From a virus (taxonomy: Duplodnaviria > Heunggongvirae > Uroviricota > Caudoviricetes), in the IMG/VR virus record IMGVR_UViG_2740892229_000023: 23,828 nucleotides of DNA. One strand, 5' to 3'. Position 1 is the first letter of the stretch. The number at the start of each line of letters is the position of its first letter. The position numbers and the translations under genes were made by a program. This document shows, one piece after another, positions 1 through 12,333 of this stretch. The notes under the pieces were generated by a model. That model saw nothing but the letters and a program-made list of their open reading frames with translations, ran no database searches and was not told the origin of the DNA.

Positions 1-702
1 ATGAAAAACATCGCCGCACAGATGATTAACTTTGACCGTGAGCAGATGCGTCGGATCGCCAACAACATGCCGGAACAGTACGACGAAAAGCCGCAGGTAC
101 AGCAGGTAGCGCAGATCATCAACGGTGTATTCAGCCAGTTGCTGGCAACTTTCCCTGCGAGCCTGGCTAACCGTGACCAGAACGAACTGAACGAAATTCG
201 CCGCCAGTGGGTTCTGGCTTTCCGGGAAAACGGGATCACCACAATGGAACAGGTTAACGCTGGAATGCGCGTAGCCCGTCGGCAGAATCGACCATTCCTG
301 CCATCACCCGGGCAGTTTGTCGCCTGGTGCCGGGAAGAAGCATCCGTTACCGCCGGGCTGCCAAACGCCAGCGAGCTGGTTGATATGGTTTACGAGTATT
401 GCCGGAAGCGCGGGCTGTATCCGGATGCAGAGTCTTATCCGTGGAAATCAAACGCGCACTACTGGCTGGTTACCAACCTGTATCAGAACATGCGGGCCAA
501 TGCGTTGACTGACTCGGAATTACGGCGCAAGGCTGCCGATGAACTTGCCCATATGACTGCGAGAATTAACCGTGGTGAGGCTATACCTGAACCAGTAAAA
601 CAACTTCCTGTCATGGGCGGTAGACCTCTAAATCGTGCACAGGCTCTGACGAAGATTGCAGAAATCAAAGCTAAGTTCGGACTGAAAGGAGCCAGTGTAT
701 GA
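1..702 (+). CDS. P: Replication protein P (DnaB helicase loader), lambda-type
   Basis: 233-aa translation (MKNIAAQMINFDREQMRRIANNMPEQYDEKPQ...KFGLKGASV) matches lambda P from memory in length and sequence; ATG at window position 1. Confidence 0.85.
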   Translation: MKNIAAQMINFDREQMRRIANNMPEQYDEKPQVQQVAQIINGVFSQLLATFPASLANRDQNELNEIRRQWVLAFRENGITTMEQVNAGMRVARRQNRPFLPSPGQFVAWCREEASVTAGLPNASELVDMVYEYCRKRGLYPDAESYPWKSNAHYWLVTNLYQNMRANALTDSELRRKAADELAHMTARINRGEAIPEPVKQLPVMGGRPLNRAQALTKIAEIKAKFGLKGASV

Positions 703-992
703 CGGGAAAAGAAGCAATTATTCATTACCTGGGGACGCATAAGAGCTTCTGTGCGCAGGACGTTGCTGCGGTAACAGGCGCAACAGTAACCAGCATAAAT
801 CAGGCTGCGGCTAAAATGGCGCGGACAGGAATCTTAGTTATTGATGGTAAGGTCTGGCGAACGGTGTATTACCGGTTCGCTACCAGGGAAGAACGGGAAG
901 GAAAGGTGAGCACGAATCTGATTTTCAAGGAGTGTCGCCAGAGTGCCGCGATGAAGCGGGTGTTGGCATTTTATCGCGGCAATTTTCAATAG
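699..992 (+). CDS. ren: Ren protein (Rex exclusion resistance), lambda-type
   Basis: 97-aa translation MTGKEAIIHYLGTH...VWRTVYYRFATREEREGK... matches lambda Ren from memory; ATGA overlap with P stop. Confidence 0.8.
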   Translation: MTGKEAIIHYLGTHKSFCAQDVAAVTGATVTSINQAAAKMARTGILVIDGKVWRTVYYRFATREEREGKVSTNLIFKECRQSAAMKRVLAFYRGNFQ

Positions 993-1029
993 ACTATGTA
1001 CATAAAAATATCATTTTTTTAATACATGT

Positions 1030-1236
1030 CTAATTATTGGACGAAATTGGTTTTTGCTTTGGTTTAGTTAGCCTAGCAATCAAGCCAGAGGCAATAATGA
1101 TGATCCAAGCAATTTGATGCAATGCTACTCCAATATAAGAACCTTTATAGATAATAAAGGCATAGATCGCTAGAAACGAAATAAATATCCATAACGAAAG
1201 TTGATAAATTTTGGCGCGCATATTTAATCCAATCAA
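1030..1236 (-). CDS. Small hydrophobic membrane protein, unknown function (2 predicted TM helices)
   Basis: 68-aa ORF in an AT-rich island; hydrophobic stretches IFISFLAIYAFIIY and IAWIIIIASGLIA. No homolog recognised; start may be ATG 1221 instead. Confidence 0.35.
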   Translation of the reverse strand: MIGLNMRAKIYQLSLWIFISFLAIYAFIIYKGSYIGVALHQIAWIIIIASGLIARLTKPKQKPISSNN

Positions 1237-1477
1237 TCAGAAAGACGAGTAATCATAGAGGTACTATCACCCGGGTAACTATTGCTATTATGAACGGATA
1301 GGATAGAGGCTTCAATAACATATGCATCAAGTATGATGGAATATGTAGGTGAAAATGACTTGTGTCAAATTTGTGGAAATGAGTACCATGTTTCTCTGAA
1401 ATTGATGTCGTTAATGGCTAGTGATAGTGAACTTTTTTACTTTATAATTCCTTTGGTTATAACAATAAGGTAAATTT

Positions 1478-2038
1478 ATGAAGAAGATAATATTATTAGC
1501 CATGATTATTGGTTCTTTAACAGGTTGCGCTAGTGTGCCACCATTGAATTTTTCAACACCTAACGTGGGAGTTAGCCAGAAAAAAATAGATGCTGAAATT
1601 AAGTCATTAACGGTATCACTTGCTCGTCCAGATGAGCAGAAAGGGGATATCACTGCTGGTATGGAGGCTATAACTCCAATTTGGCGTGAATCTTTGCAGG
1701 AAGCACTCGACCGAATGACTATTTTTCGTGATAGTTCACCAAATACGGTTAGCTTAAATGTTAAAGTGTTGGCTCTTGACGTTCCTGCTTTTGGTGTTTC
1801 AATGACAACTAAAGCAATTGCAAGGTATGAAATAATCAACCGTGCGAATGGTGATATTATATATACGCAGGATATTGAGTCTACCGGTACTGTTCCAGCC
1901 AGTTACGCATTCTACGGTATTGTTCGAGCACGCGAATCTGTTAATCGCGCGGTGCAAAACAACATAACGCAGTTCTTGCAAGCATTAGAAAGTGTTGATC
2001 TTTCTCGTCCAATGTTTCCTGTTAGGGTAGCTAAATGA
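1478..2038 (+). CDS. Putative lipoprotein, unknown function
   Basis: 186-aa ORF with signal peptide and lipobox (LAMIIGSLTGC); AT-rich codon usage unlike flanking phage genes. Confidence 0.6.
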   Translation: MKKIILLAMIIGSLTGCASVPPLNFSTPNVGVSQKKIDAEIKSLTVSLARPDEQKGDITAGMEAITPIWRESLQEALDRMTIFRDSSPNTVSLNVKVLALDVPAFGVSMTTKAIARYEIINRANGDIIYTQDIESTGTVPASYAFYGIVRARESVNRAVQNNITQFLQALESVDLSRPMFPVRVAK

Positions 2039-2487
2039 AGCGATTATTCGTAATTGCTCCACTCTTAGTGTTGGTTGGATGCGCACAAAATATATCGCCA
2101 AATAGTTATTCTGTTGGCTCTGTGGGCATGGTTAATCGAACTATCGCTGGTACAGTTATTAGTGCTAGGGGGGTTGATATCAGTGGGACTTCCGCGTTAG
2201 GCGGGACTGCTGGGGCTGCCGTGGGGGCAACCGCTGGTTCTGCGCTTGGTGGGGGAGTTCGTTCTAATATCGTTGGTGCCGTTGGTGGTGCAGTCATTGG
2301 TGGTATTGCCGGGGCAGCAATCGAATCTTCAGCAACAAAACAAACAGGCATGGAATATGTTGTCGAAACTGAGAATGGGAATTTAATGACCATTGTTCAA
2401 GGCAAAGATCCGTTATTTACTCAAGGAAGTAAGGTCCTTGTTTTATACGGAAACCCTTCTCGCATAATAACAGACCCGCGTCACTAA
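2035..2487 (+). CDS. Glycine-zipper outer-membrane lipoprotein (SlyB/Pcp-like)
   Basis: 150-aa ORF with lipobox (LLVLVGC), Gly/Ala-rich zipper (GGTAGAAVGATAGSALGGG...GAVGGAVIGGIAGAAI) and a SlyB-like C-terminus; start overlaps upstream stop (ATGA). Confidence 0.65.
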   Translation: MKRLFVIAPLLVLVGCAQNISPNSYSVGSVGMVNRTIAGTVISARGVDISGTSALGGTAGAAVGATAGSALGGGVRSNIVGAVGGAVIGGIAGAAIESSATKQTGMEYVVETENGNLMTIVQGKDPLFTQGSKVLVLYGNPSRIITDPRH

Positions 2488-2677
2488 CATACCTTTTGAT
2501 TTTGTAAAATCAATTCGTAATAATAAAGTCATCGGAGCTTGAACAACTCCGGTGACTTCTGCGCTAAACGGGGACGTTTATGCGCACATACAATCCAAAC
2601 TCTCTTCTCCCTTCACAGATGCAGAAATGCACCTGCGATTTTTTGCATCCAGCGTCTGACCTCTGCGGAGGTGAAGC

Positions 2678-3133
2678 GTGAACCTACCACAAGATGGCAT
2701 CAAACTGCATCGCGGTAACTTCACCGCTATCGGCCAGCAGATCCAGCCTTATCTGGAGGACGGAAAATGCTTTCGCATGGTGCTTAAACCGTGGCGTGAG
2801 AAACGCAGTCTTTCCCAGAATGCACTCAGCCACATGTGGTACAGCGAAATCAGTGAATACCTCATCAGCAGGGGGAAATCGTTCGCTACCGCAGCATGGG
2901 TAAAAGATGCTCTCAAACACACATACCTCGGTTATGAAACCAAGGACCTGGTTGATGTCGTAACCGGCGAAATCACTACTATCCAGTCGTTACGCCATAC
3001 TTCCGATCTTGATACCGGAGAGATGTATGTCTTCCTGTGTAAGGTTGAAGCCTGGGCGATGAATATTGGCTGCCACCTGACTATTCCGCAGAGCTGCGAG
3101 TTCCAGCTGCTGCGCGACAAGCAGGAGGCGTAA
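2678..3133 (+). CDS. ybcN: YbcN-like nin-region protein (DLP12 YbcN family)
   Basis: 151-aa translation from GTG 2678 ([19 protein letters not shown]...QLLRDKQEA) matches remembered E. coli YbcN. Confidence 0.75.
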
Positions 3134-3303
3134 TGGCTACACCGCTTATTCGTGTCATGAACGGACACATCTACAGAGTACCAAATCGTCGTAAGCGTAA
3201 GCCTGAGCTGAAGCCATCCGAAATACCAACACTGCTCGGATATACCGCTAGCCTGGTTGATAAAAAATGGTTGCGACTGGCAGCAAGGAGGAATCATGGC
3301 TGA
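3133..3303 (+). CDS. ninE: NinE-like small protein
   Basis: 56-codon ORF below the track cutoff ([56 protein letters not shown]); position and C-terminal motif resemble NinE. Confidence 0.6.
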   Translation: MATPLIRVMNGHIYRVPNRRKRKPELKPSEIPTLLGYTASLVDKKWLRLAARRNHG

Positions 3304-3586
3304 TTTGAGAAAAGCAGCGCGTGGTCGGGAATGCCAGGTAAGAATCACTGGCGTATGTAATGGCAACCCTGAAACGTCTGTACTGGCACATATCCGGCTG
3401 GCTGGATTGTGCGGCACCGGTATTAAACCGCCAGACCTTATTGCCACCATTGCCTGTTCTGCCTGTCACGACGAAATCGACCGCCGCACGCATTTTGTCG
3501 ATGCTGAGTACGCAAAAGAATGCGCGCTGGAAGGTATGGCGAGAACGCAGGTTATCTGGCTGAAAGAGGGGGTAATCAAGGCGTGA
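3296..3586 (+). CDS. ybcO: YbcO-like nin-region protein
   Basis: 96-aa ORF from ATG 3296 ([23 protein letters not shown]...), Cys-rich; matches remembered DLP12 YbcO. Confidence 0.75.
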
Positions 3587-3945
3587 ATACTTACCACATC
3601 ACACTACCCTGGCCTCCGAGCAATAACCGCTATTACCGCCATAATCGCGGGCGCACACACATCAGCGCAGAAGGGCAGGCATACCGCGATAACGTCACCC
3701 GAATCATTAAAAACGCAATGCTGGATATCGGCCTGGCTATGCCAGTGAAAATCCGTATTGAGTGCCACATGCCGGATCGCCGTCGCCGTGACCTGGATAA
3801 TCTGCAAAAGGCCGCTTTTGACGCACTCACCAAAGCAGGTTTCTGGCTGGATGATGCTCAGGTCGTTGATTACCGCGTTGTGAAGATGCCTGTTACCAAA
3901 GGTGGGAGGCTGGAACTGACCATCACCGAAATGGGGAATGAATGA
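3583..3945 (+). CDS. rusA: Holliday junction resolvase RusA
   Basis: GTG 3583; 120-aa translation [25 protein letters not shown]...[25 protein letters not shown] matches RusA. Confidence 0.9.
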
Positions 3946-4082
3946 TGTTTGAGTCTTATATGGCAGAGCGTCTTCGCCGCCGCTGGGTGCGCCTGCGCTT
4001 ATATCGTTTTCCTGGTTCTGTTTTGACCGATTACCGGATACTGAAGAATTACGCCAAAACCCTGACAGGAGCAGGAGTATGA
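3942..4082 (+). CDS. ylcG: YlcG-like small protein
   Basis: 46-codon ORF ([46 protein letters not shown]) overlapping rusA stop; conserved position between rusA and Q. Confidence 0.6.
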
Positions 4083-4167
4083 AGTCAGAGATAACAATCA
4101 ACTAATACTATTTTGTTGATTTTTGCTTGTAATTGGCGTTCTGGTCTGATTTTTGTGGAGTAAGTTG

Positions 4168-4551
4168 ATGCGTGATATTCAGATGGTTCTTGAGCGTTGG
4201 GGAGCGTGGGCGGCTAATAATCATGAAGATGTGACCTGGTCGTCCATTGCCGCCGGTTTTAAGGGATTAATTACTTCAAAAGTAAAATCTCGCCCGCAAT
4301 GTTGTGACGATGACGCGATGATCATTTGCGGGTGCATGGCCCGTCTGAAAAAGAACAACAGCGATTTGCACGATTTATTAGTAGATTATTATGTAGTCGG
4401 TATGACATTCATGTCACTGGCAGGTAAGCATTGCTGCTCTGATGGTTATATCGGGAAAAGGTTACAGAAGGCTGAGGGTATAATTGAAGGGATGTTAATG
4501 GCATTAGATATCCGGTTAGAGATGGATATCGTTGTTAATAACTCTAATTAA
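4168..4551 (+). CDS. quuD: Late gene antiterminator Q (QuuD-type)
   Basis: 127-aa translation [24 protein letters not shown]...[16 protein letters not shown] matches DLP12 QuuD. Confidence 0.85.
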
Positions 4552-4740
4552 TATGCCAGTTGTTTACTAAAAGTTATTAAAAATGGGGCGTTGCAACGCC
4601 CCCAAAAATAAAGGGTAATATATAACAGAAGGTTTATATAGTTAGAAGCAAGGTTGTGCTCCTAAAGGAAGTGGCTTGAGGGAGCCACTTATATGTTGGG
4701 GAGGCAAAGCCTCCCGCAACATATCTTTTTCGTAATCAGA

Positions 4741-5838
4741 TTAGAACTGGTAAACCAGACCTACAGCAACGATGTCATCAGTGCTTACACCGAGTGCTTT
4801 AGTGAAGTCATTTTTGTCAAGCAGGTTGATTTTGTAATCAACGAAAGTAGACATATTTTTGTTGAAGTAATAGGTTGCACCTACATCAACATATTTGACT
4901 AAGTCCTGATCGCCCCATACTCCAAGATCCTTACCTTTAGATTGCAGGTAAGCAACGGACGGACGCAGACCGAAATCGAACTGATATTGTGCAACAGCTT
5001 CGAAGTTTTGAGCTTTATTAGCAACGAAGTGATCAGCAAATACAGTCATATTCTGGGTTTCAGAATAGGTAGTGGCCAGGTAAATGTTGTTAGCGTCATA
5101 TTTCAGACCTGCGGCCCAAACTTCTGCATTTTTACCGGAAGCAAATACTTCAGGAAGAACTTTCCCTGCATTAACTTGAGTGTCGGTACGATCAGATTTC
5201 GCATAAGTTGCACCGATACCGAATCCTTCGTATTCATAGGTAGCAGAGAAACCGAAGCCATCACCGTTACCTTCAGTGTAGTTATCGAAATCGCTACGAT
5301 CGTTTTTGCCTTGGTACTGAGCAGCAAAGTTCAGACCATCAACCAGACCAAAGAAGTCGTTGTTACGATAGGTTGCAACACCAGTGGTACGACCAGTCAT
5401 GAACACATCTGTTTGGGTCCAGGTATCGCCACCGAATTCTGGCAGAACGTCAGTCCACGCACCGATGTCGTATGCTACACCGTAGTTACGGCCGTAATCG
5501 ATTGAGCCGTAGTCACCGAATTTCAGGCCTGCAAATGCAAGACGGGTTTTGTCTTTGGAGGAACCTTGAGATTCAGCGCGGTTGCCTTTGAATTCATATT
5601 CCCACTGACCGAAACCAGTCAGCTGATCGTTGATTTGGGTTTCACCTTTGAAGCCAAGACGGGCATAAGTAGTATCACCATCATCTGCATCATTAGAGGA
5701 GAAGTAGTGCTTAGCATTAACTTTCCCGTACAGATCCAGCTTGTTACTGTCTTTATTATAAATTTCAGCTGCCTGAGCAGACATCGCCATCAGTACTGAT
5801 GCAGCTACAGCAGAAATTGCCACTGTTAATTTTTTCAT
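4741..5838 (-). CDS. nmpC: Outer membrane porin NmpC/OmpD family, intact
   Basis: 365 aa with signal peptide ([23 protein letters not shown]), porin beta-barrel motifs and C-terminal ...GLVYQF; lysogenic-conversion moron between Q and lysis genes. Confidence 0.9.
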
Positions 5839-6189
5839 CGTGAGCCCTTTTTTTTGAACTATTATTAAAAAATGATGTCACTGCGCGATAAATATTCATC
5901 TAATCAATGTGATTATTTCAAGATGTAAGTTTTGGTTTCTCGTTTGATTTGTGAAGTAGATCTCTATTTTTATCTGAACTTTTTTCTATCGAATCCTATT
6001 TATAGCTCTTGGCTGAATAAAAATAAATCTATTAGCCAATTTATATTAACGGCTGTTATTTATAAGTGCTCTATAATTTGAAGGTTCAATTTAAATCGGC
6101 TAAAAATAACACTGGAAATTATTTGTTGGTTATTTGTTGAGATTTGCTTATGTATTTGTAGTGGTGTTTTCAATACTCGGTAGCATTCT

Positions 6190-6240
6190 CGCAAATATCA
6201 TTTAGTGGTTTACGTACGTAAAAAATTGGTTATGCTGTTA
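6190..6240 (+). promoter_or_regulatory. Candidate late promoter PR' and Q-utilisation region of prophage 1
   Basis: -10-like TATGCT (6231..6236) just upstream of a short transcribed region ending in a terminator; the block is conserved in inverted orientation at 9395..9460. Confidence 0.35.
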
Positions 6241-6264
6241 AGAGTGGTTACTTCGTCACACAGC

Positions 6265-6299
6265 TTAAACCCGCCGTCGAGCGGGTTTTTCCATTTTTT
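6265..6299 (+). terminator. Intrinsic terminator (tR'-like) upstream of holin
   Basis: Hairpin AAACCCGCCGTCGAGCGGGTTTTT (6267..6290) followed by a T-tract. Confidence 0.55.
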
Positions 6300-6411
6300 G
6301 AGTCTCGATATTAGCTGATAACCCAATACCTGAGTTATTCACTGACTCCGAGTCTGTTACGTTTCGTAGTATTCCCTCAATTTACACCCGCTTTGTCTGC
6401 GAGGTGGGGTT

Positions 6412-6623
6412 ATGAAATCCATGGATAAGTTAACAACGGGTGTCGCCTATGGCACCTCAGCAGGTAGTGCCGGGTACTGGTTTTTACAGCTGCTAGATAA
6501 AGTCACGCCCTCACAGTGGGCGGCAATTGGAGTGCTGGGTAGCCTGGTATTTGGCCTGCTGACGTACCTGACAAACCTTTATTTCAAGATTNNNNNNNNN
6601 NTAAGGCTGCGAGAGGTGAATAA
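6412..6623 (+). CDS. essD: Class II holin (EssD-like), copy 1, interrupted by a 10-N gap
   Basis: [60 protein letters not shown] then N-run; stop overlaps lysozyme start (TAATG). Confidence 0.8.
6592..6601. other. Assembly gap (10 N) inside holin copy 1
   Basis: Run of exactly 10 N. Confidence 0.95.
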
Positions 6624-7120
6624 TGTCGCCATCATTACGCAAGGCTGTAGCAGCTGCTATTGGTGGTGGGGCTGTTGCCATAGCGTCTGTGCTCATCACT
6701 GGTCCGAGTGGTGACGATGGTCTGGAAGGTGTCAGCTACATACCATATAAAGATATTGTTGGTGTATGGACTGTATGTCACGGGCATACAGGAAAAGACA
6801 TCATGCTCGGTAAAACGTATACCAAAGCAGAATGCAAAGCACTCTTGAATAAAGACCTTGCCACTGTCGCCAGATAAATTAACCCATACATCGAAGTCGA
6901 TATACCGGAAACAACGCGCGGCGCTCTTTACTCATTCGTTTACAACGTGGGTGCTGGCAATTTCAGAACATCGACGCTTCTTCGCAAAATAAACCAGGGC
7001 GATATCAAAGGCGCATGTGATCAGTTACGTCGCTGGACATATGCTGGCGGTAAGCAATGGAAAGGTCTCATGACTCGTCGTGAGATTGAGCGTGAAATCT
7101 GTTTGTGGGGTCAGCAATGA
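6623..7120 (+). pseudogene. rrrD: Phage lysozyme (RrrD-like) copy 1 with an in-frame TAA at 6875..6877
   Basis: Frame reads [16 protein letters not shown]...KDLATVAR, then TAA, then continues in the same frame [29 protein letters not shown]...CLWGQQ to 7120. Confidence 0.65.
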
Positions 7121-7301
7121 ACAGAGTAACCGCGATTATCTCCGCTCTGGTTATCTGCATCATCGTCGGCCTGTCATGGGCTGTTAATCATTACCGTGAT
7201 AACGCCATTACCTACAAAGCCCAGCGCGACAAAAATGCCAGAGAACTGAAGCTGGCGAACGCGGCAATTACTGACATGCAGATGCGTCAGCGTGATGTTG
7301 C
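7117..7301 (+). CDS. rzpD: Rz spanin (RzpD-like), N-terminal fragment truncated by gap
   Basis: [61 protein letters not shown] then N-run; ATGA overlap with lysozyme stop. Confidence 0.75.
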
Positions 7302-7311: not shown

Positions 7312-7554
7312 AGTGGCAAGGTCTTTATTCAAGAGTGCTTTGCATTCTGCTTTGGTATACGTTTTACCGAGCATGATGTCTTTTCCTGTATGCCCGTGAC
7401 ATACGGTCCATACACCAACAATATCTTTGTATGGTATGTAGCTGACACCTTCCAGACCATCGTTACCACTTGGGCCAGTGATTAACACTGATGCTATAGC
7501 AATTGCTCCGCCACCAATAGCAGCAGCAACGGCTTTTCGTAATGATGGAGGCAT
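7312..7554 (-). CDS. Phage lysozyme (RrrD-like) copy 2, N-terminal 81 codons, truncated by gap
   Basis: [39 protein letters not shown]...NKDLAT then N-run; differs from copy 1 at several positions. Confidence 0.8.
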
Positions 7555-7765
7555 TATTCACCTCTCGCAGCCTTGCGCTTATCTTCTTTAATCTTGAAAT
7601 AAAGGTTTGTCAGGTACGTCAGCAGGCCAAATACCNNNNNNNNNNACCTATTGCTGCCCACTGTGAGGGCGTGACTTTATCGAGCAACTGTAAAAACCAG
7701 TACCCGGCACTACCTGCTGAGGTGCCATAGGCGACACCCGTTGTTAACTTATCCATGGATTTCAT
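7554..7765 (-). CDS. Class II holin copy 2, interrupted by a 10-N gap
   Basis: [40 protein letters not shown], gap, then ...[13 protein letters not shown] by reverse-complement reading; a distinct allele from copy 1. Confidence 0.8.
7636..7645. other. Assembly gap (10 N) inside holin copy 2
   Basis: Run of exactly 10 N. Confidence 0.95.
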
Positions 7766-7832
7766 AACCCCACCTCGCAGATGCGGGTGCTGTGTAATGG
7801 AAATAAAAAGGCCACCTGACGTGGCCACCAGA

Positions 7833-10978: not shown

Positions 10979-11323
10979 TTACAACATTGAAAGCACACCA
11001 TCCAGAAAACCAAGAGCTGTTTGCAACTCTTTTCTTATTGTCCCATCAGAACACTTCTGCTTCTTTGCAATAGTTCTTAGTGAGATGCCGATAACAAAAT
11101 GAGCAATAACCAACTCATACTCTTCGGGCTTATATTTCCGCAATCGCGCAACACAGCTGTCAATCATGATTCCTTCATCATCATCGCATTGTTGGCGTGT
11201 TTTCTTTCCATGAGGTAGTAAACCTTTAAACCCTGCAGCAACAGGCTGCCAGTTCACACCACTGTTATCTGCTGCAGCCCATGCACCCCAGCGGTCCAAT
11301 ACTTCATACATATCACGCATCAA
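10979..11323 (-). CDS. Late gene antiterminator Q-like protein (QuuD-family homolog)
   Basis: 114 aa (MMRDMYEVLDRWGAWAAADNSGVNW...QQCDDDEGIMIDSCVARL) parallels the quuD product at 4168..4551. Confidence 0.8.
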   Translation of the reverse strand: MMRDMYEVLDRWGAWAAADNSGVNWQPVAAGFKGLLPHGKKTRQQCDDDEGIMIDSCVARLRKYKPEEYELVIAHFVIGISLRTIAKKQKCSDGTIRKELQTALGFLDGVLSML

Positions 11324-11337
11324 CTTTCTCCACCAAA

Positions 11338-12333
11338 TCAGGCCAGCACGCCAATTGCCAGCGCACGATCGATAAAACGAAATATCAGCTCCAGCTGGGA
11401 GCCATACTTCTCTTCAAATGCCACGGTATCCGCATGCAGCTCGTCGTGATGCTTTCTGCACAAAGGCAACACAAAGAGGTCATGCGCTTTTGTACCCATT
11501 CCCCCCTGACCGTGGCCTATCAGGTGGTGGGGATCATCAGCGGGCTTTCCACAACATGCACACGGCTGTGTCTTAACCCAGCGCGTGTACTTCTCATTAA
11601 CCCAGCGGCGACGTTTTGGGCGTAACATAAAAGACTCCGGCGACTCCGGATCCACTTTCAGCGCCAGCACCTTTTTTGCCTTATCCTGGATGATGCTGGT
11701 GGCAGGAACCGAAGGCACAAGGTCACTTTCCCGGGTGACAGACGGCACAACAGGCTTTGGTAATCTCAGTGCCTTACGGGCTGCACTTTCCGGTAAGGCA
11801 TCCGCCAGGTCATTACGAATCAGCCACCAGCACAGTTCCGGCATTGTCACAACGTGACTATCATCAAAACCGAGGTCCCGACGCACAACAGACAACACCC
11901 AGCGGGCACAGTTATCCGTTGCCATTGATTCCAGCCGTTCCGTGAACTGATCGCGCAGCTGGTTATCACAGTGCCAGCACAGACGGATTGCGCCCGGAGC
12001 GTGTCGCATTGTGGTCATGTTCTCGCTGTGCCAGTCGGAATGAGGCCACTGGCAGCCTTTTTCACGAAGTAACCAGCTTTCAAGACATTCCACGCCACCA
12101 GCACGACGGATCACTGCCTCATTGCGGAACACGGCCCGAACAACAGGATCATCCGCCAGCGGTTGTGATGCCGCGGGAACGGCACCACTGGCGAAAGATG
12201 AATAACGTTCCGGCTCAGGCTCCAGCAGTACACGCCCCTGCATAAACAGGGGCATCAGCTCTGAACCTGGTCTGAACAATACGATCCCCATACGCGGGGC
12301 AATTTCAGGGGTCAGTAGTGCTCTCACGGTCAC
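11338..12333 (-). CDS. Phage protein with C-terminal HNH/zinc-finger-like motif (DUF968-like)
   Basis: 331 aa; C-terminal CACCGKPADDPHHLIGHGQGG...LPLCRKHHDELH motif; sits in the nin-equivalent region before Q. Confidence 0.55.
   Translation of the reverse strand: MTVRALLTPEIAPRMGIVLFRPGSELMPLFMQGRVLLEPEPERYSSFASGAVPAASQPLADDPVVRAVFRNEAVIRRAGGVECLESWLLREKGCQWPHSDWHSENMTTMRHAPGAIRLCWHCDNQLRDQFTERLESMATDNCARWVLSVVRRDLGFDDSHVVTMPELCWWLIRNDLADALPESAARKALRLPKPVVPSVTRESDLVPSVPATSIIQDKAKKVLALKVDPESPESFMLRPKRRRWVNEKYTRWVKTQPCACCGKPADDPHHLIGHGQGGMGTKAHDLFVLPLCRKHHDELHADTVAFEEKYGSQLELIFRFIDRALAIGVLA

Follow-up and report, generated by a model that had tools for sequence, protein, structure and literature searches.

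A mobile gene pair in a DLP12-type lambdoid prophage couples a SlyB homologue to a predicted LptE-fold lipoprotein

SlyB is a PhoP-regulated glycine-zipper lipoprotein of Escherichia coli and Salmonella that forms rings around outer-membrane proteins and lipid (PDB 7ojf/7ojg). Its gene is monocistronic and belongs to the core genome; to our knowledge, all characterised SlyB-type members act alone and all are core genes. TraT, a lipoprotein of F and other IncF plasmids, is involved in surface exclusion and serum resistance. Here we describe a low-GC cassette that carries a SlyB homologue (gene B) coupled to an upstream lipoprotein gene of an uncharacterised family (gene A), found in IMG/VR virus record IMGVR_UViG_2740892229_000023 (Caudoviricetes), a DNA stretch of 23,828 nucleotides, here called the window. 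The function of SlyB has been summarised as stress-induced stabilisation of the outer membrane (bioRxiv 10.64898/2025.12.22.696046). TraT combines an LptE-like core with two transmembrane helices in a decameric outer-membrane ring (PMC12658005), and its gene is of chromosomal origin and has been co-opted several times by plasmids (PMC11733297). Moreover, both YajG and SlyB of E. coli co-purify with LptDE, and a prediction places the N-terminal segments of the lipoproteins discussed in the same study inside the LptD lumen (PMC12065857). A literature search found no paper on the WP accessions, on phage PhiR30_1 (the deposited phage that carries A) or on glycine-zipper lipoproteins in superinfection exclusion, and one on SlyB and prophages found none on the A-B pair.

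Alignment with the DLP12 prophage of E. coli K-12 defined the borders of the insert, homology being lost after position 965 and returning at 2494, just upstream of a ylcH-like open reading frame (ORF, 2580-2681) and ybcN. Between the same junctions K-12 DLP12 carries emrE-ylcJ-ybcK-ybcL-ybcM as cargo, and the equivalent site of lambda is a ren-ninB gap of only 73 bp, in agreement with what an earlier note on this DNA, made from the sequence alone, had said of DLP12 and lambda. The guanine-plus-cytosine (GC) content of the insert was 0.398 (39.8%), against 0.531 in the left flank and 0.490 in the right flank, which confirms the AT-rich block of about 1.5 kb that the note had placed between ren and ybcN, and the three ORFs it had listed there were all found at the same positions (Table 1). 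At third codon positions GC was 0.30 in A and 0.34 in B, compared with 0.59-0.62 in P and ybcN nearby. Over its full length B is not AT-rich (GC 0.47), since its glycine codons raise the value; its AT-richness lies in the third codon positions. The Juhala/Hendrix definition of a moron, as given in PMC3594210, concerns DNA that is extra relative to related phages, whose GC deviates from that of the surrounding genes, and which has a promoter and terminator of its own and is expressed from the repressed prophage. The insert shows the first two features against lambda and K-12 DLP12, a promoter of its own is only predicted (Table 1), and we regard it as a genuine moron, a compositionally foreign and horizontally mobile module captured by a DLP12-type lambdoid phage. 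At its left border, homology to K-12 renD is lost 27 nt short of position 992, where ren stops, so that in this phage lineage the final nine ren codons come from the insert.

Table 1 Positions of the cassette and of the features within it, numbered from the first letter of the window.
Feature	Position	Strand	Size	Remarks
Low-GC cassette (moron)	966..2493		1,528 bp	between ren and ylcH/ybcN of a DLP12-type lambdoid prophage
Hydrophobic orphan ORF	1030..1236	-	68 aa from TTG, 63 aa from ATG at 1221	doubtful gene
Sigma-70 promoter-like site, GTGATA-16-TATAAT	1421..1448	+		predicted, candidate lysogen promoter; consensus scan, 10/12 matches; ~30 nt upstream of the A start
Gene A, predicted outer-membrane lipoprotein, uncharacterised family	1478..2038	+	186 aa	LptE/PelC/PqiC/TraT-core-like alpha/beta fold (model)
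Codon of the lipidated Cys17 of A	1526..1528	+		lipobox LTGC, Ala at +2; C17 column invariant
Gene B, SlyB-family glycine-zipper 2TM lipoprotein, predicted outer-membrane	2035..2487	+	150 aa	

By sequence comparison B is a full-length SlyB homologue, C-terminal beta domain included, which bears out the SlyB-like glycine-zipper character that the earlier note had proposed. Against the SlyB chain of PDB 7ojf, phmmer aligned residues 2-149 with 3-155 (E 1.3e-14), and the B family profile matched SlyB with an E value of 5.6e-15; the alignment runs end to end through the lipobox, the N-terminal strand, the glycine-zipper hairpin and the C-terminal beta domain. The AlphaFold2 (AF2) model of B, of moderate confidence (pLDDT 69.3), consists of a beta strand, a helical hairpin (residues 55-71 and 75-101) and a C-terminal beta domain. 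When this model was searched with Foldseek, 7ojf was the sole significant match (E 1.3e-8, probability 1.00, 28% identity), the match to TraT (E 0.1) not being significant. Both Pfam glycine-zipper hits lay just below their gathering cutoffs (PF05433, 21.1 bits against 24.2; PF13488, 16.9 bits against 25). B begins with MKRLFVIAPLLVLVG before the lipidated Cys, followed by AQ, with the lipobox LVGC at residues 13-16 and Ala at +2; C16 was invariant across 37 homologues and is one of 38 invariant columns in the family. The 581 homologues found form a tight subfamily, 60-77% identical, which is distinct from SlyB in being mobile and nearly always coupled to an upstream LptE-fold lipoprotein gene. 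Thus, in spite of the end-to-end similarity, B differs from SlyB in its low identity to it, in its coupling to A, in its accessory status (present in 5% of E. coli genomes) and in lacking a PhoP box.

Gene A starts with MKKIILLAMIIGSLTG before the lipidated Cys, followed by AS. Both genes are real and encode the lipoproteins that the note had called, with 512 matches for A in the large database. Clustering at 50% identity yielded 987 representatives of the A family. Under the Lol sorting rule a residue other than Asp at +2 directs a lipoprotein to the outer membrane, and the lipoprotein signal peptides and sorting residues of A and B predict that location for both. The family alignment has 31 invariant columns, including the lipobox Cys, the N-terminal segment PPLNFSVPNVG and the helix RARES-NR-VQNNI, and the N-terminal segment is kept even in A genes that stand without B. 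The AF2 model of A, a confident one (pLDDT 86.6, pTM 0.79), shows two helices packed on an antiparallel sheet which, together with the lipoprotein anchor, is the hallmark of the LptE/PelC/PqiC (DUF330) class; the modelled fold of A is of the LptE/PelC/PqiC/TraT-core type. Outer-membrane lipoproteins that assemble into rings or act as barrel plugs typically have this fold. A shares it with LptE, PelC, PqiC and CsgG-type proteins at only 6-15% identity, and A does not lie beside Lpt, Pel, Pqi or curli genes: no conserved association with lptD, pel, pqiAB or csg-type cognate machinery was found across 66-80 loci.

The homology and structure searches that the note had called for placed A in no named family: there was no Pfam match at E<=0.01 and no NCBIfam family, no solved structure was detectable from the A sequence, profile level included, and the BFVD library of viral structures returned only weak matches of low TM score. 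In PHROGs, A and B matched families of unknown function only (phrog_12521 and phrog_13877). Membership of YajG (PF03923) was considered and rejected; the two are lipoproteins of similar length, but A has no Pfam match to that family and reached only E 0.17 and 11.4 bits with PRK11627, whose cutoff is 242. Direct comparison with E. coli YajG by hhalign gave a weak match (probability 75%, 120 columns that include the signal peptide), which would make A a remote YajG relative at best. Newer runs of the NCBI Prokaryotic Genome Annotation Pipeline (PGAP) name A hypothetical or "YajG family lipoprotein". Across many genera, NCBI and UniRef label A as "UDP-N-acetylglucosamine acyltransferase" (e.g. 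P0001, P0003 and the PV340558 coding sequence 11151-11711). The family also includes divergent A domains without the lipobox Cys that carry long, charged, coiled-coil-like C-terminal extensions (P0300, 644 aa; P0322, 539 aa), and no Pfam domain was found in the extra regions of the long members P0247, P0250, P0300 and P0322.

A ends and B begins within a shared ATGA at 2035-2038 on the plus strand, in which stop and start codon overlap, the translational coupling that the note had read there. Among 80 species-level loci taken from GTDB genomes, B lay directly downstream of A on the same strand in 67, which came from Gamma-, Beta- and Alphaproteobacteria and from metagenome bins labelled Solibacter, Chthoniobacteraceae and Desulfobulbaceae; searches begun with B led back to A too. 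Across the classes of Proteobacteria the A and B proteins were 55-70% identical. Clustering of the ORFs at these loci recovered only A, B and shadow ORFs as conserved, with no third gene, and the nearest 122 flanking ORFs fell into 110 Pfam families, none of which occurred in more than four loci. The flanking genes were mostly non-phage and included housekeeping genes. The cassette was usually poorer in GC than the DNA on either side (median difference 4.9 points, maximum 20), and annotated neighbourhoods contained integrase, anti-restriction, umuDC and toxin-antitoxin genes and transposase fragments. A and B are thus a self-contained two-gene unit that is horizontally mobile and co-inherited across phyla. 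In two Photorhabdus loci with A only (L051, ~6270-7050; L055, ~5960-6320), the gene is followed by repeated ORF artefacts ("VHCRTGSLE" and "FLSCLYGSE"), whose recurrence of about 20 residues, read off the translations, has the pattern expected from a type I-F-like CRISPR array.

Of 5,426 complete E. coli genomes, 280 (~5%) carried the cassette, always on the chromosome and always at least 99% identical. Strain 2012C-4431 has it within a lambdoid prophage at argU that looks complete, and JNQH498 within a decayed prophage remnant in which A and B are both intact; one E. coli copy (H47; NZ_CP098858.1, 3262312-3265000) is interrupted by an IS5 element. Among deposited phage genomes the block occurs in PhiR30_1, which is also the only one of 50,697 with gene A, and plasmids gave a single remote match among 72,556. 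IMG/VR held 38 viral contigs with gene A, namely 21 of the E. coli type, 13 with other A-B pairs and four with A alone. The genomic slots differed widely: the pair was found in the nin region of a Salmonella lambdoid prophage, between the tape measure gene and gpM/L in a Pantoea-type lambda-like phage and, in another viral contig, beside a CI-like repressor gene, and A alone was found in a Xenorhabdus prophage, where it separates the tail chaperone genes from the tape measure gene, and in Pseudomonas prophages, where it lies between Q and the lysis genes. The pair, or A alone, was captured independently as a moron in several prophage slots, at least five of them in other bacteria; moron-type lysogenic-conversion status is thus strongly supported, and the status of prophage envelope-lipoprotein cargo that the note had assigned to the genes holds. 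Like the described envelope morons (lambda Bor/Iss and Lom, phi80/N15 Cor, T5 Llp, HK97 gp15), the cassette is an insert relative to sibling phages, has a deviant GC content and a putative promoter of its own, and encodes envelope products; unlike them, it comprises two genes with mostly non-phage flanks at the species-level loci, and it has no homology to any of them.

Some of these prophages carry further accessory genes. The Salmonella enterica nin-type region with the pair (L135, 3388-10580; L136, 332-7524) also holds several genes of toxin-antitoxin type (ParE/PaaA2, MazE/PemK, YoeB/Phd-YefM, HigB with a helix-turn-helix protein and YdaS/YdaT), so that accessory genes are densely packed there from the replication genes to Q. 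In the window, an OmpC/NmpC-type porin gene, another envelope moron, lies at 4741-5838 on the minus strand, and the complete prophage of strain 2012C-4431 contains envelope cargo of the porin type and an Iss/Bor lipoprotein gene (L133, 23842-24939 and 26730-27023); since porin and Iss/Bor genes occur in the same prophage type, the phage stacks several outer-membrane cargo genes.

The conserved module does not extend upstream of A. Similarity of the E. coli cassette DNA to its nearest relatives (Klebsiella, Serratia and Pantoea-type) begins exactly at the A start codon, and the 512-bp AT-rich leader before it is unconserved, even in the closest cassette, that of Klebsiella. The minus-strand ORF that the earlier note had taken for a small membrane protein does exist in this leader, but it is not a conserved gene of the module: it had no homologue apart from near-identical E. 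coli copies, was absent from all other cassettes compared, and is annotated only in the PhiR30_1 record and not by PGAP. We take it to be outside the conserved module and most likely not a gene. No intrinsic terminator was found inside the insert; a strong hairpin at 2526-2558 (12-bp stem, without a U-tract) is part of the phage backbone. The RNA of 2490-2586, in conserved backbone upstream of the ylcH-like ORF and ybcN, folds with unusual stability (-36.7 kcal/mol, z -6.1) into three hairpins, the 12-bp stem among them, and may be a regulatory or terminator element of the nin region.

On these data, the reading to which we give most weight, though tentatively and at somewhat less than even odds, is that the pair is a mobile fortification or shielding of the outer membrane, with SlyB-like stabilisation as its primary benefit; exclusion of incoming phage is possible as a by-product of, or an alternative to, stabilisation. 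A and B would be made in roughly equal amounts, lipidated and delivered to the outer membrane by the Lol pathway, where B would assemble a palisade or ring of SlyB-type helical hairpins to which A would dock. Together they would supply the two elements of TraT, its LptE-like core and its two transmembrane helices, as a "split TraT". Such a complex would enclose or stiffen patches of the outer membrane, so that the carrier would better tolerate agents that attack the envelope. In the lysogen, expression would come from the cassette's own promoter in the AT-rich leader and, during lytic growth, also from read-through from pR. The invariant N-terminal segment of A could be an interaction element like the N-terminal segments predicted to enter LptD. 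The resemblance to TraT concerns architecture: neither A nor B combines an LptE-like core, two transmembrane helices and a beta-hairpin in a single chain, the pair has no sequence homology to TraT, and what is one polypeptide there is split into two here.

Several observations weigh against stabilisation by an A-B complex. A occurs without B in 13 of the 80 species-level loci and in the four viral contigs, and can therefore work without a dedicated B or may use the SlyB of the host. We infer the physical interaction of A and B from operon structure only, and the very high conservation of the surface residues of A and of PPLNFSVPNVG suggests a specific conserved ligand. The slots within tail modules, occupied by A alone and by the pair, are places where exclusion genes, HK97 gp15 for example, more typically sit (PMC3594210). 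Promoter-like sites in the region were not more frequent than in shuffled sequence, and there was no PhoP box in 1237-1477, unlike slyB, matches across the window not exceeding chance; regulation therefore differs from that of slyB.

The alternative that the pair acts mainly in superinfection or entry exclusion, in the manner of Cor, Llp, TraT or HK97 gp15, and blocks adsorption, penetration by the tail tip or tape measure, or passage of DNA from phages or conjugative elements, is a serious one, which we consider less likely. It draws on the repeated capture of the pair, or of A alone, by temperate phages, and on the places of capture, since the Xenorhabdus slot between tail chaperone and tape measure is that of the HK97 gp15 exclusion moron (PMC3594210) and further slots lie at tape measure/gpM, next to cI and in nin regions; the combined A+B architecture, moreover, resembles the surface-exclusion protein TraT (PMC12658005). 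Set against this, neither A nor B showed any sequence relationship to annotated exclusion or defence families (no annotated function in PHROGs, zero matches with PADLOC), A is almost absent from deposited phage genomes, and the species-level flanks are mostly non-phage, with housekeeping genes among them. Identity of 55-70% between bacterial classes that share no common phage receptors also fits poorly with receptor-specific masking. Because the distribution is broad, highly conserved and often non-phage, we favour a generic envelope role over the masking of one receptor as by Cor or Llp. A related and more speculative proposal, which we hold to be unlikely, is that a TraT-like ring or "cork" of two components is built from A and B, a previously unrecognised, widely mobile system of envelope exclusion or defence, in which B would be the palisade and A its LptE-fold crown, PPLNFSVPNVG might engage LptD or another universal outer-membrane machine, and phages, integrative and conjugative elements and genomic islands would carry the system, in many Gram-negative lineages, against the entry of competing phages, plasmids or toxins.

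Immunity or protection against envelope toxins of competitors, whether colicins and bacteriocins that enter through outer-membrane proteins or periplasmic effectors of type VI and type IV secretion systems, appears very improbable. Immunity proteins are often lipoproteins that face the periplasm, and the Luteimonas cassette has PAAR/Tle1-type effector genes of a type VI secretion system and a gene with an XAC0095 domain within a few kb; Cor, too, protects against colicin M (PMC3594210). No conserved cognate toxin gene adjoined the pair in the 66 loci examined, however, and immunity proteins usually diverge fast, whereas the pair is highly conserved. That conservation, with strong purifying selection across the family at the invariant columns of A and B, also counts against the idea that the pair is neutral passenger DNA, a chromosomal lipoprotein operon gained by illegitimate recombination. 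Within E. coli selection is not measurable, since all copies are at least 99% identical, and the IS5-broken copy (H47) would suit a dispensable passenger; independent capture by several unrelated prophage backbones in different slots, and the survival of both ORFs in a degraded remnant, make it very improbable. LpxA, the acyltransferase whose name A has inherited in the databases, is a cytoplasmic left-handed beta-helix. The reading of A as such an enzyme has only that propagated name in its favour, which PGAP no longer uses, and we regard it as practically ruled out by the lipoprotein signal peptide that marks A as exported, by its alpha/beta LptE-type fold and by the absence of any hexapeptide-repeat or acyltransferase Pfam match. 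Mobile stabilisation of the outer membrane thus remains the reading we prefer, at the tentative strength given above.

The window itself joins two prophage segments. Positions 1-7301, which include the cassette, run collinear with the argU prophage of DLP12 type. The stretch 7313-7781 corresponds, inverted, to the lysis region of the argU prophage, and 7312-23828 matches a different prophage, one that other strains have next to proA. In none of the complete E. coli genomes was 80% or more of the window found in one place. This suggests recombination between prophages or an inversion, or else an assembly join.

That glycine-zipper lipoproteins of the SlyB type build protective nanodomains in the outer membrane has become clear only recently. 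What is new here is a SlyB subfamily hard-wired to an uncharacterised partner of predicted LptE fold, mobile, and repeatedly adopted by temperate phages, in E. coli, Salmonella, Xenorhabdus and Pseudomonas and in a Pantoea-type phage; in addition, the widely propagated mis-annotation of A as an acyltransferase is corrected. If the pair does strengthen the envelope or exclude incoming elements, it would offer a tractable system of two proteins in which to study the remodelling of the outer membrane by accessory lipoproteins, and would represent a new lysogenic-conversion function in about 5% of complete E. coli genomes.

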